Below are positions 23,856 through 27,027 of a stretch of 64,000 nt of DNA, in pieces. The DNA lies in assembly GCA_043812195.1 (NCBI GenBank), contig JBDRML010000045.1, forward strand, positions 972-64,971, written 5' to 3'. The notes beneath the pieces were generated by a model. The model was not told the origin of the DNA. It saw only the letters and a program-made list of their open reading frames with translations, and searched no databases. The position numbers were made by a program, and so were the translations under genes. Numbering within the stretch: the first letter of the stretch is position 1; each line of letters begins with the position of its first letter. This DNA comes from Candidatus Woesearchaeota archaeon. GTDB lineage: Archaea; Nanobdellota; Nanobdellia; SCGC-AAA011-G17; PNOQ01.

Positions 23856-24169
23856 TTCATAAATCCCCCTACATAATTTACATATTTTGCCCCAAGTTCA
23901 TCCAAAAAATCGCTAGTTTCTTCTTTAACAAATCTCTCATATCTTTCAGACTTTAAAACATAAACAAGTACTGTAGTATCTGAAGTAGCTGCAACATCTA
24001 ACACCATATATTTATCACCAGCAAAATTAAAACCATCATCTTTAGTAGGATTTTTTACCTTACTCATTTCAACAAATGCAACTTCGTCGCAAAGAGGACT
24101 ATTAGAATCATCAAATTTCCAATAACTTACAATATCCTCAACACAAAATACCCTTCCCATTTTAAACAT
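23852..24169 (-). CDS. Hypothetical protein within the gyrB-gyrA operon
   Basis: 105-aa ORF that overlaps both neighbouring genes. Confidence 0.4.
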
Positions 24170-26042
24170 CTAAGTTTTTAACCTGATTAGCAAACTCAAA
24201 AATAAAGTTTCTTCTAGGCTCAACTAATTCCCCCATTAAAGTTGTAAATATTTGATCAGCCATGACAGCATCATTAATCGTAATTCTCTTTAATAATCTG
24301 GTCTCTGGATCCATAGTTGTTTGCCACAACTGTTTAGGATTCATCTCTCCAAGACCTTTATACCTCTGAATACTAACTCCCTTATCTCCTAACTCAGCTA
24401 AAACTTTCTGTAACATAACATCATTATAAACATATCTTGTCTTACTTCCTTTCTTAATCCCATATAAAGGAGGCATTGCAATATACAAATAACCAGCATC
24501 AATTAAAGGTTTCATATATCTATAAAAAAATGTTAATAACAAAGTAGCAATATGTTGACCATCAACATCAGCATCTGTCATAATAACAATTTTATGATAT
24601 CTTGCTTTTTCTATACTAAACTCTTCACCAATACTTGTCCCTATTGCAGAAACCATAGTAACAATTTCATTATTCTTAAATATTTTGTCTAATCTTGCTT
24701 TTTCAACATTCAAAATTTTTCCTCTCAATGGTAAAATTGCTTGAAATTCTCTCTTTCTTCCTTGACGGGCTGACCCTCCAGCGGAATCTCCCTCAACCAA
24801 AAACAATTCACTCATAGAAGGATCTCTACTTTGACAATCAGCTAATTTTCCAGGCAAACTTCCACTCTCCAAAACACTCTTTCTTCTAGTTAATTCCCTA
24901 GCTCTCCTAGCAGCATCTCTAGCCTTAGAAGCTAAAACAACTTTTTCAATAACAATTTTAGCAATAGAAGGATTTTCTTCAAAATAAGTTCCTAAAGAAT
25001 CACTAACTATGCTATCAACTATCCCCTTAACATTTGAATTACCTAATTTTGTTTTGGTCTGCCCTTCAAATTGAGGTTCAGGAACTTTAACAGAAATAAC
25101 ACAAGCCAATCCTTCCCTAGAATCATCACCGCCTATTTTCTCAGATAATTTCTTCTTCTTAATATAATCATTAATAATTCTAGTTAATGCAGATCTAAAC
25201 CCAACTTCATGTGTTCCACCCTCATGAGTTCTTATATTATTAACAAAACTGTATAAATTTTCAGAATAACCATCATTATATTGCAATGCTACTTCTATCT
25301 GAATATCTCCTTTAGATTTTTCAAAATAAATAATTTCATTATGTAGAACATTCTTATTCTGATTTAAATATTTAACAAAACTCCTTAAACCACCATCATC
25401 AAAAAATTCATCTTTCTTTTCACTTAATTCATCTTCTATTGAAATCCTTACTCCTTTATTCAAAAAAGATAATTCTCTTAATCTATTAGCTAAGACATCA
25501 TAACTAAAATTTATTTCACTAAATATACTATCATCAGGCATAAAATGTATAGTTGTACCAGAAGTATCTCCGTTACCAATTATTTCTAAAGAACCAACCG
25601 CAACACCATACTCAAATCTTTGTTTGTATATATTCCCATTTTTTCTAACTTCAGCAATTAACCATTTAGACAAAGCATTTACAACAGAAACACCAACACC
25701 ATGTAAACCACCAGACACTTTATAAGAATCTTTATCAAATTTTCCACCTGCATGTAAAACAGTCATAACAACTTCTACTCCTGACTTTTTTAAATCTGGA
25801 TGAAGATCAACAGGAATACCTCTTCCATTATCAGAAACTAAAACACTACCGTCTTTTTTAATAATTACATTTATTTTATCACAATAACCACCCATTGCTT
25901 CATCTATAGAATTATCTACAACCTCATAAACTAAATGATGAAGTCCTCTTGTAGATGTATCTCCAATATACATACTCGGTCTAGCTCTCACTGCACTTAA
26001 TCCCTTCAAAACTTTTATATTTTTTGCATCATACTCAACCAT
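24162..26042 (-). CDS. gyrB: DNA gyrase subunit B
   Basis: GHKL ATPase motifs, [15 protein letters not shown], 626 aa. Confidence 0.95.
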
Positions 26043-27027
26043 TTTTTTCTCCTATTTTATATTCCATTCCTTCTGGAATATGCGGTTCAATTATTCTTAC
26101 CAAGATTTTACTATCATCCTGTTTAAATCTCAAATAGTAATACTTTTTATCTCTAAAACCAATTGTAGGATCCAAACCCCAAACTTCATTAAAATATTTC
26201 TTCATAATTTCATGTTCTTTTTTAGAGAAAGAATTTGTACAAAGAATCACATAACCTTGTTTATTATCATAGCTTCCATCATCACAAATCCAAATGGCTA
26301 AGCTCTTTGAGGTCAACAAATCAAGCGCTTCTCTAGTTACAACCTTTTTACCATTTTTATAAAATAAATCCCTATAAAAATTAAAAACAGGATGTGAAAT
26401 AGAGTTTAATTCATAAGTTTCAAGTAATCTATTATTCAAAATCTTTTGATAAAAATATCTTTTTTTGATAAAGCCCTTTAATTCATCCCATTTATAATTA
26501 AGATATTTTTTTTGTTTTTTTGAATGAGAAACTCTAAAAAAAGCATTTCTATTTTTTTTCCTTACACTAGCATCGCCAAATAAACTACCAACGACCAAAT
26601 CATGCTGATCCTTCGATAGAAGTTTTAAAGGATCTTTAGTTAAAGATTTATTCCACTTTTTAACTAATTTATAAGTCTCCCTAGTAGAAAACTTAGACAA
26701 ATCATATTTTTTAGAAAACATTATTAATTCTTTATTTGTCTTTAATCTGGCCAATGGAATTACTTTACTTTTATTTATTCCTGGCACTAAATTTAAAACC
26801 TTCAATTCTTCCAGTGCTCTTTTTAAAGAAGAGTAATCTATATTCATTGTCATTGCCAAGCTAAGAACATTACCTTGTTTTGCTTTAAGAGAAATCTCTT
26901 CTAAATCTGGTCTCTTACGAACAGCTTCTAAACCCTTCAACACCTGAATATTCTGAGCATCATACTTGCTAGATTGCGTATCTTTTTCCACCTTAATTTC
27001 TCCATAAATATGATATAAATAACACAC
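26035..27027 (-). CDS. Double-motif LAGLIDADG homing endonuclease whose N-terminus is a diverged duplicate of the GyrB N-terminus
   Basis: [12 protein letters not shown] and [20 protein letters not shown] motifs. Residues ~15-40 ([20 protein letters not shown]) parallel the GyrB start ([20 protein letters not shown]). The stop overlaps the gyrB ATG within an A7 run. Confidence 0.75.

Follow-up and report, generated by a model that had tools for sequence, protein, structure and literature searches.

Homing elements are usually described as intron-borne or intein-borne. Fungal mitochondrial mORFs are found in atp6 of Allomyces macrogynus, in atp6, atp9, cox2 and nad3 of Glomus, in atp9 of Rhizopus and in cox2 of Mortierella; they bring in the end of a foreign gene copy, and the displaced native end stays next to it as a duplicate, the native duplicate showing 91 to 98% nucleotide (nt) identity to relatives and the imported end 64 to 81% (PMC3630166). 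In yeast, WHO elements replace the 3' end of FBA1, and resistance to them comes from allelic differences (Coughlan et al., 2020, 10.1101/2020.01.20.913210). We analyzed a 64,000-nt stretch of a Candidatus Woesearchaeota contig (JBDRML010000045.1, positions 972 to 64,971; the whole stretch is referred to as the window), in which a LAGLIDADG homing-endonuclease gene (HEG) occupies the 5' end of gyrB. The endonuclease open reading frame (ORF) starts with a GyrB-like segment (copy 1) and is followed by a complete gyrB with its own N-terminus (copy 2). The host belongs to DPANN, archaea with very small cells. We interpret the locus as a non-self-splicing "end-replacement" homing element in the gyrB 5' end and estimate the probability of this interpretation at about 0.8. 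All end-replacement homing elements known to us replace the 3' end of the host gene; by analogy, the gyrB element may be viewed as a 5' mirror image of the mORFs and WHO elements.

The gyrB element shares several properties with the mORFs. Both consist of a free-standing endonuclease ORF (LAGLIDADG or GIY-YIG in the mORFs) inside a protein gene that carries neither intron nor intein, both have an imported gene end that becomes functional and a displaced native end about 1 kb away, and in both the ORF can be in frame with the host gene. The native copy is 91 to 98% identical to relatives in the mORFs vs 79 to 92% over 66 nt at gyrB, and the imported copy 64 to 81% vs about 59 to 65%. The mORFs replace the 3' (C-terminal) end in organelle genomes, whereas at gyrB it is the 5' end of an archaeal gene in the chromosome that is replaced. 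With the 5' end replaced, the endonuclease takes the promoter, the start codon and the N-terminal codons, and gyrB would therefore be re-initiated internally through a Shine-Dalgarno (SD) sequence and an overlapping stop/start. The displaced fragment is silent in the mORFs and is predicted to be translated as the endonuclease N-terminus at gyrB. With the WHO elements the gyrB element has in common the lack of self-splicing, the exchange of one end of an essential or highly important gene by homing, a duplicated host-gene fragment as the second homology arm and a large and strongly diverged endonuclease family; resistance by allelic differences, not only by site interruption, may be a further common property. 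WHO proteins are intein-derived, fused to zinc fingers, independently transcribed, located downstream of FBA1 and found in clusters. The gyrB enzyme, in contrast, is I-SceI-like with a helix-turn-helix (HTH)-like extension, lies upstream of its host gene, is fused in frame to the displaced fragment and probably shares the host gene's transcript; no clusters were seen. The seg and mob genes of T4-like phages reportedly spread by "intronless homing", in which free-standing endonucleases encoded beside their targets are copied during break repair with co-conversion of the flanks, and immunity is said to result from target sequence differences. They resemble the gyrB element in homing without splicing and in adjoining the target, but they encode GIY-YIG or HNH enzymes, are intergenic with their own expression signals, and show no fusion, duplication or target re-start.

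On the minus strand of the window the endonuclease-like ORF is followed by gyrB, a 105-amino acid (aa) ORF, a HAD hydrolase gene and gyrA; genes nearby include those of Spt4, S24e, S27ae and RpoE'. Together with the source names of the homologues, these neighbours assign the organism to the Woesearchaeota/Nanoarchaeota within DPANN. The features of the element are as follows.

27033..27105, minus strand: predicted resident gyrB promoter, now ahead of the endonuclease ORF (TATA-like box plus a conserved block of about 65 nt upstream)
26035..27027, minus strand: endonuclease ORF as listed, 330 aa from the first in-frame GTG
26035..26991, minus strand: endonuclease ORF, corrected, starting at GTG 26991 (318 aa, the typical family length; members have 311-335 aa)
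26908..26991, minus strand: copy 1, the resident gyrB 5' end and endonuclease N-terminus (GTG plus 27 codons, aligned to HEG-less gyrB starts)
25977..26907, minus strand: segment missing from HEG-less alleles (931 nt; gap in alignment A2, from the copy 1 Pro codon to the gyrB (S)MYIG codons)
26623..26907, minus strand: helical middle domain, family-specific (aa 41-135 in the 330-aa numbering; AlphaFold (AF2) model)
26104..26598, minus strand: two-motif LAGLIDADG nuclease domain (Pfam PF03161, E = 3.9e-40)
26035..26052, minus strand: putative coupling junction (SD, A7 run, gyrB ATG, endonuclease TGA)
25977..26042, minus strand: copy 2, the element-borne replacement gyrB 5' end (short leader and variant residues, unlike the resident-type MEK..SS..IQVL leader)
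24162..26042, minus strand: gyrB, host and presumed target gene (626 aa, complete; HATPase_c, DNA_gyraseB, Toprim and DNA_gyraseB_C by Pfam)

A two-motif LAGLIDADG ORF upstream of gyrB had been proposed in the initial annotation of the window, and the Pfam matches agree with it (E = 3.9e-40 for the nuclease, four domains for GyrB). Its extent had to be revised at one end: the frame is open over 26035..27027, but GTG 27027 cannot be the start because it lies 6 nt after the TATA-like box TTTATAAA (27040-27033, minus strand). GTG 26991, the true start, aligns with the gyrB ATG of HEG-less relatives and with the endonuclease-ORF ATG of L044, the closest relative of the window (L numbers denote loci, P numbers GyrB homologues). 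The promoter block and the TATA-like box align with the region just 5' of gyrB in the HEG-less loci L045, L046 and L048 and in the HEG-containing L044, and the block is also found in L130; its position and conservation predict a promoter role. Downstream of it, copy 1 matches the HEG-less gyrB start codon for codon (MEKSTKSSYKAQSIQVLEGL... in relatives). The 931-nt segment contains the endonuclease body, the SD sequence, the stop/start overlap and the replacement gyrB 5' end. At the junction, the SD GGAG (26052-26049) lies within the endonuclease codons I-G-E and is followed by the A7 run (26048-26042), the gyrB ATG (26042-26040) and the endonuclease TGA (26037-26035), so the TGA/ATG overlap in an A7 context was annotated correctly. 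The overlap reads GGAGAAAAAAATGGTTGA, and the 3' end of the endonuclease ORF overlapping the complete gyrB is ATGGTTGA.

The nucleotide identity of the two copies had been put at about 70%; it is 67% (78% aa identity) over 18 codons, and ORF residues 21-40 resemble gyrB residues 3-22. The similarity is modest on DNA alone: the local alignment score was 36 vs 18 +/- 2.8 for shuffled sequences, and 1 of 500 shuffles also reached 36. In tblastn searches ORF residues ~7-42 matched the N-termini of unrelated bacterial GyrBs (below the 1e-5 limit). Judged from these matches, the GyrB-like N-terminus is beyond doubt real at the protein level.

The origin of the two copies is evident from a comparison of alleles with the HEG (filled) and without it (empty). 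In the clade of the window L044 is filled (its GyrB, P0122, is 86% identical to the window GyrB), and L046 to L049 are empty and have the gene order of the window (GyrB 69 to 70% identical, including P0124 at 70% and P0127 at 69%). L045 (GyrB 76%; P0123) is also empty, but its upstream context is different. The gene order S24e-Spt4-RpoE'-PIN-small ORFs-gyrB-HAD-gyrA is common to the window and to the P0124 and P0127 loci. In alignment A2 the promoter block, the TATA-like box, the start and the leader MEK.T.SS.Y.AQ.IQVL of window copy 1 match the empty gyrB 5' region; the homology stops after the Pro codon of RKRP and restarts at (S)MYIG. In a second clade L013 and L005 are filled and L134 to L136 are empty with 88 to 91% identical GyrB (P0391, P0393 and P0394). 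The N-terminus of P0394 is exactly that of the first 22 residues of the L013/L005 endonuclease, and those of P0391 and P0393 differ from it at one to two of the first three residues. L013 copy 1 is identical to the three empty alleles at 58/66, 61/66 and 52/66 nt (79 to 92%). Over 54 anchored positions copy 1 matches the empty alleles at 47 to 50 positions in L134 and L135 and at 43 in L136, and copy 2 at 32, 33 and 35 positions in L134 to L136 (about 59 to 65%). The insertion boundaries were set by alignments A2 and A4, and the empty-allele sequences at the site are ...GCAGTTCGTACTCGTCCAAGTATGTATATAGGA... in L046 and ...GGAGTTAGAAAAAGACCTGCAATGTACATTGGT... in L135. Two clades with conserved gene order are thus polymorphic for presence and absence at one homologous site. 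Because of these filled-vs-empty matches, it was concluded that the resident gyrB 5' end survives as the promoter, the start codon and copy 1, that about 0.93 kb (endonuclease body, SD and copy 2) appears to have been inserted, and that copy 2 is foreign. Capture of the promoter and start, as well as invasion of the gyrB 5' end by a HEG together with donor-derived gyrB sequence, had been suggested before; the alignments of both clades support them. The initial annotation also suggested testing whether the upstream copy is closer to the gyrB of another lineage; the upstream copy is resident, and the foreign gyrB sequence is copy 2.

In the second clade (Pacearchaeota-type) the leader between TATA and ATG is long (about 110 nt) and conserved (L013:~3900-4000 and L134:~2400-2500; alignment A4 columns ~205-290). 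It contains complementary CTGCTC / GGAGCAG arms, which suggests a structured 5' untranslated region.

The element recurs in a large family. A protein search over 5.8 billion proteins, with clusters counted at E <= 0.001, found at least 247 protein clusters; the best 120 of the 247 are full length (311 to 363 aa) with 47 to 59% identity. All 25 aligned members have the GyrB-like N-terminus, the helical middle, two LAGLIDADG motifs with invariant Asp and the C-terminus MKYKIGEKN. The copy 1 junction of the family reads VRKR-FD (RKR-P/F-D with the window included), and the ORF ends with ...GEKNG-stop. A scan of one genome per GTDB species gave 43 loci. The ORF is directly upstream of gyrB on the same strand in all 43 and also in L044, L132 and L133, that is, in every family locus with readable context. 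Full-length homologues unrelated to GyrB would have spoken against the proposed origin of the ORF; the homologues found all carry the GyrB-like N-terminus and all readable ones sit on gyrB, which strengthens the idea. In about 40 loci the C-terminal codons Y-K-I-G-E/G are TAT AAA ATW GGA GRA, an SD sequence, and the gyrB ATG overlaps the ORF end by 4, 8, 11, 14, 17 or 23 nt (mostly 8 or 11) or follows within 1 nt. The frame offset between ORF and gyrB is 1 or 2 across loci. The A7 run of the window is not kept elsewhere; other loci read GGAGGAGAAAATG, GGATTAAAAAATG and similar sequences. This junction geometry argues for translational coupling of gyrB to the endonuclease, and the re-initiation proposed in the initial annotation is in line with it. 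The spacing from copy 1 to copy 2 is about 931 to 964 nt in most loci where copy 1 can be placed. One longer variant is seen at L036:4001-5200, with a spacing of 1180 nt and a 433-codon open frame. A suspected pseudogene in L042 turned out to be an artefact of masked N bases.

The endonuclease ORF has a Pfam LAGLIDADG_2 domain at aa 144-308 (E = 3.9e-40). The two motifs are GSLFGDAS and IWICDDGS, with D152, D249 and D250 invariant in 25 sequences, and the strict pattern for each motif is satisfied in 38 of 42 loci. An AF2 model built on the family alignment has a mean predicted local distance difference test score (pLDDT) of 84.6 and a predicted template-modelling score (pTM) of 0.81; residues 1-27 are predicted to be disordered. 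In a Foldseek search of the PDB the C-terminal ~200 residues superpose on I-WcaI (6x1j) and I-SceI with a template-modelling (TM) score of 0.77 and a root-mean-square deviation of 2.0 Å over 199 columns; these were the top matches (E = 6e-15 for I-WcaI, 3e-14 for I-SceI; 22 to 24% identity). The modelled fold is that of a monomeric, pseudo-dimeric two-motif LAGLIDADG enzyme of the I-SceI type, with the order alpha-beta-beta-alpha-beta-beta-alpha. I-SceI and I-WcaI (PDB 1r7m and 6x1j) share this monomeric two-domain fold, but they reside in group I introns of mitochondrial rRNA genes and, unlike the gyrB endonuclease, have neither the ~95-aa helical N-terminal domain nor a host-gene-derived N-terminus. 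The middle domain (residues ~40-135) is helical in the AF2 model with pLDDT 75 to 97. It gave weak HTH hints (Mga, AbiEi_4 and HTH_8, E = 0.005 to 0.06), and profile searches of PDB sequences and Pfam returned no significant match for it. It is probably an HTH DNA-binding module. Distant relatives found by a profile search over 1.84 billion representatives match the nuclease domain only, some of them inside inteins; viral and phage collections also gave only distant relatives with the nuclease domain alone matched and the middle domain absent. The N-terminal part thus seems to be confined to the family linked to gyrB.

The endonuclease is under purifying selection. The ratio of nonsynonymous to synonymous substitution rates (dN/dS) of the endonuclease body was 0.11 to 0.28 in the seven pairs, out of eight, that gave a finite estimate (0.03 to 0.21 for gyrB). 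Copy 1 can be recognised in 28 of 41 loci; in the others, L044 among them, it has decayed, which fits a leftover of varying age. The idea that copy 1 is under protein-level selection, raised by synonymous sites saturated between the copies, was largely dropped, since copy 1 differs little in nucleotides from HEG-less alleles and has decayed in roughly one third of lineages.

Copy 1, copy 2, the endonuclease and gyrB appear to differ in part in their histories. Nucleotide identity of copy 1 and copy 2 is 0.589 within genomes vs 0.595 between genomes (permutation p = 0.72), and recent tandem duplication or ongoing gene conversion of the copies was rejected because the two values are equal. In partial Mantel tests across 34 loci copy 2 similarity follows the endonuclease with GyrB controlled (partial r = 0.38, p = 0.0002) and is not associated with that of the GyrB body (r = 0.08, p = 0.12). 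For copy 1 the association is with the GyrB body (partial r = 0.33, p = 0.0008; for the endonuclease r = 0.20, p = 0.085). Vertical descent alone, even with noise, cannot give such opposite patterns for the two copies. Groups with 100% bootstrap support in the GyrB tree, for example L004+L033, receive 0 to 2% in the endonuclease tree. L004 and L033 have 94% GyrB vs 63% endonuclease identity, and L005 and L027 have 65% GyrB vs 75% endonuclease identity. At synonymous sites the endonuclease has diverged more than gyrB in L004-L033 (P = 0.005), the difference being significant in one of five pairs. Sliding-window identity profiles of close pairs dip over the endonuclease and again at copy 2 compared with both flanks. 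The matches listed in a metagenome scan with the GyrB N-terminal half, where a shared peptide pattern filled the list, were distant GyrBs (54 to 62% identical, GC content 0.28 to 0.70), probably mostly bacterial, and these served as a background set.

Among 117 GyrB homologues, 94 retain the Lys of VRKRP, which precedes the junction by two codons. This Lys is kept in 10 of 42 copy 2 sequences (lost in 32) vs 20 of 28 copy 1 sequences of the same genomes (changed in eight), and the asymmetry within genomes is 15:0 (McNemar p = 6e-5). Among six HEG-less DPANN loci picked by similarity alone, five have the Lys, and the difference from copy 2 holds (p = 0.009). In the window, codon 20 of copy 2 (25985-25983, GCT) encodes Ala in its place, and copy 2 reads ...GCAGTGAGAGCTAGACCGAGTATGTATATTGGA... 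at the putative target region. Loss of the Lys in copy 2 is a possible target-site immunity mark.

With these data the following course of events is proposed. The mobile unit would be about 0.93 kb long, consisting of the endonuclease body, the gyrB ribosome-binding site and copy 2. The I-SceI-like enzyme would make a site-specific double-strand break in a naive gyrB at or near the codons VRKR|P(G/S/A)MYIG, which the predicted target would span (targets of LAGLIDADG enzymes are long, about 18 to 22 bp), and the element-bearing allele would serve as the template for repair of the break. The recipient's promoter, start codon and first ~22-28 codons (copy 1) would become fused in frame to the endonuclease, and the same repair would place copy 2 before the remainder of gyrB. 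The endonuclease would then be expressed from the gyrB promoter and start. GyrB would be made from the same transcript by re-initiation at the ATG overlapping the endonuclease stop, with the SD within the last codons of the endonuclease. The filled allele would be spared, as copy 1 is interrupted at the site and copy 2 is substituted there, notably at the Lys codon.

Several observations weigh against this scheme or limit it. Individual empty sites could have arisen by loss of the element, not by lack of gain. Even the closest pairs are almost saturated at synonymous sites (dS ~0.65-2 where an estimate was possible), which makes the dN/dS values rough. The change of the Lys is not diagnostic: the five non-Lys GyrBs examined comprise two filled loci (P0157 and P0158) and three empty ones (P0130, P0150 and P0412), the empty-site P0124 also lacks it, and 10 of the 42 filled loci retain it. 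With L029 as an exception, the deepest split is the same in the endonuclease and GyrB trees (94% and 100% bootstrap), and the pairwise identities of the two proteins correlate (r = 0.66). Much of the history is therefore vertical, and homing is perhaps rare or restricted to close relatives. Within clades the endonuclease tree has poor resolution, and some of the conflict with the GyrB tree may be a lack of signal. In our reading, inheritance is for the most part vertical, and exchange takes place now and then between related lineages.

The Lys was also tried as a predictor of the element: predicting element presence from its loss failed in three of five cases. One of these GyrBs, P0130 of a HEG-less gyrB (L130:1601-1700), has a resident-type long leader joined to a copy-2-type motif that is also found in the window and in L007. 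We conjecture that its N-terminus is the trace of an element that was lost when copy 1 recombined with copy 2, with a resistant allele as the outcome.

A stranded element would account for part of these data: after one ancestral invasion there would be no homing now, and the ORF would stay open only because gyrB lost its own promoter and start context, making gyrase expression dependent on transcription, and perhaps translation, through the ORF. The SD and the stop/start overlap kept in about 40 loci, the congruent deep split with its correlated identities (r = 0.66) and the intactness of nearly all ORFs agree with such a state. An open ORF alone, however, does not explain dN/dS values of 0.11 to 0.28 or the invariant catalytic Asp. 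Filled and empty alleles also occur among relatives with 86 to 91% identical GyrB, copy 2 tracks the endonuclease and not gyrB, and endonuclease identity between lineages is sometimes higher than GyrB identity; we consider this explanation unlikely. The same purifying selection on the protein would be expected if a LAGLIDADG-plus-HTH protein, which recalls WhiA, had been domesticated, either to regulate the gyrase operon or to work with gyrase by means of its GyrB arm, and were kept for host benefit. WhiA is among the weaker fold matches (E ~1e-4), the helical HTH-like middle domain is family-specific, and a GyrB arm can still be read from copy 1 at 28 of 41 loci, including the Tyr and Ile at positions that, as we assume, contact the partner's ATP site in the GyrB structure. 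The gene is dispensable, though, since close relatives live without it, and both catalytic motifs are intact, unlike those of WhiA. Copy 1 has decayed in about one third of the loci, including the window's closest relative L044; where it is well preserved, its nucleotides are almost those of HEG-less alleles, a sign of recency and not of peptide selection, and the N-terminal 27 residues are predicted to be disordered. Domestication is accordingly given even less weight than stranding.

Two further explanations fare worse still. An ORF that opens with GyrB sequence and abuts gyrB through an A7 run could be a degenerate intein or an endonuclease-GyrB polyprotein fused by slippage on the A7 run, both of which had been listed as alternatives in the initial annotation, and inteins are common in gyrB and gyrA of these lineages. 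No Hint/splicing or intein domain was found in the ORF by Pfam or in the fold model, neither junction has a Cys, Ser or Thr (the family junction is VRKR-FD), and the downstream gyrB is complete with its own N-terminus and SD. The annotation's statement that the ORF is not a canonical intein is upheld by these findings, and the intein remnant was rejected for lack of a Hint domain. Slippage or frameshift fusion was rejected as well, since loci differ in the A-run and in the length and frame of the overlap. Group I introns of organelles typically have their LAGLIDADG ORF fused in frame to the preceding exon, and DPANN rRNA genes reportedly contain group I introns with LAGLIDADG genes; copy 1 could in principle be exon 1 of gyrB, spliced to MYIG, and the endonuclease ORF would then lie in frame within an intron of group I or another kind. 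When 25800-27300 was scanned against Rfam at a permissive threshold (cmscan, E <= 10), no intron family was found, with SNORD42 and SraB as chance-level hits and Rfam being weak for divergent introns. Copy 2, with its own SD and ATG, is protein-conserved in all loci, which would be pointless if it were spliced out, and the intron was rejected in the absence of an Rfam hit. Both the intein or slippage explanation and the intron are regarded as highly improbable. The element is thus neither an intron ribozyme nor an intein and is not self-splicing, and end replacement by homing is the preferred explanation.

An extension of the end-replacement reading is that capture of the promoter and start creates an addiction-like lock on an essential gene, making the element hard to lose or silence, and that the GyrB arm is functional in addition, for example by docking the nuclease on the GyrB ATPase domain. 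We regard this combination as unlikely. If it were true, there would be a prokaryotic class of promoter-capturing homing elements, maybe also at the 5' ends of other essential genes.

Many related genomes have in-frame inserts in gyrB or gyrA, most of them about 1.2 kb long. In GyrB they lie at ~aa 424 in L001, L004, L009, L013, L017, L020, L028, L034, L036 and L043 and at ~aa 497 in L019; other gyrase inserts are at aa 122 of GyrA in L041 and at L136:5584-6893. GyrB homologues of 780 to 1071 aa carry an Intein_splicing domain, and one GyrA has Intein_splicing plus LAGLIDADG_3. Since inteins insert there too, the gyrase genes of related archaea are targeted by several kinds of homing elements. 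The gyrB and gyrA of the window have no such in-frame insert.

The conserved block of about 65 nt directly 5' of the TATA-like box (27041-27105, minus strand) reads AAAATTGAAT.TTGG..CTAG.GGGCTTGAAACGGC.AAATTCT.GCAGAAAGC. It is kept among genomes with GyrB only 70 to 86% identical, with the endonuclease present or absent, and may be a regulatory site of the gyrase operon. The 105-aa ORF (23852-24169, minus strand) has no Pfam match and overlaps the stop of gyrB at one end and the HAD start at the other. What lies between gyrB and HAD/gyrA differs among relatives: ORFs of 116 and 81 aa in L044, ORFs of 154 to 164 aa in L048/L049 and nothing in L046. A 117-aa ORF (27544-27897, plus strand) corresponds by position to the PIN_9 genes of L046/L048. 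A 53-aa ORF (28279-28440, plus strand) with the end ...LIKIISIRQKKHLR resembles the C-terminus ...LIKTVSIRQKKYIR of this 117-aa ORF, which lies about 0.5 kb upstream, and looks like a duplicated 3' gene fragment.

Full-text literature searches found no description of an endonuclease at the start of an archaeal gyrB, which is absence of evidence only. By term counts, neither "homing endonuclease" nor "LAGLIDADG" occurs in the one study of archaeal gyrase evolution that came up (PMC9348778). The arrangement had been called unusual in the initial annotation. This holds in part: the family is widespread, and the principle is known in mirror image from fungal mitochondria and yeast. The non-splicing end-replacement class, known from fungal mitochondria and yeast FBA1, is now found in a DPANN chromosome and in a family of at least 247 clusters. 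The 5' orientation would have effects without a counterpart at the 3' end, namely inheritance of the host promoter and start, fusion to a host peptide and dependence of gyrase expression on the element. The first ~25 gyrB codons are imported in filled genomes, which matters for gyrB phylogeny and for start annotation. With cleavage predicted, the family would also be a natural set of I-SceI-like enzymes with a predictable target in a highly conserved gyrB sequence.

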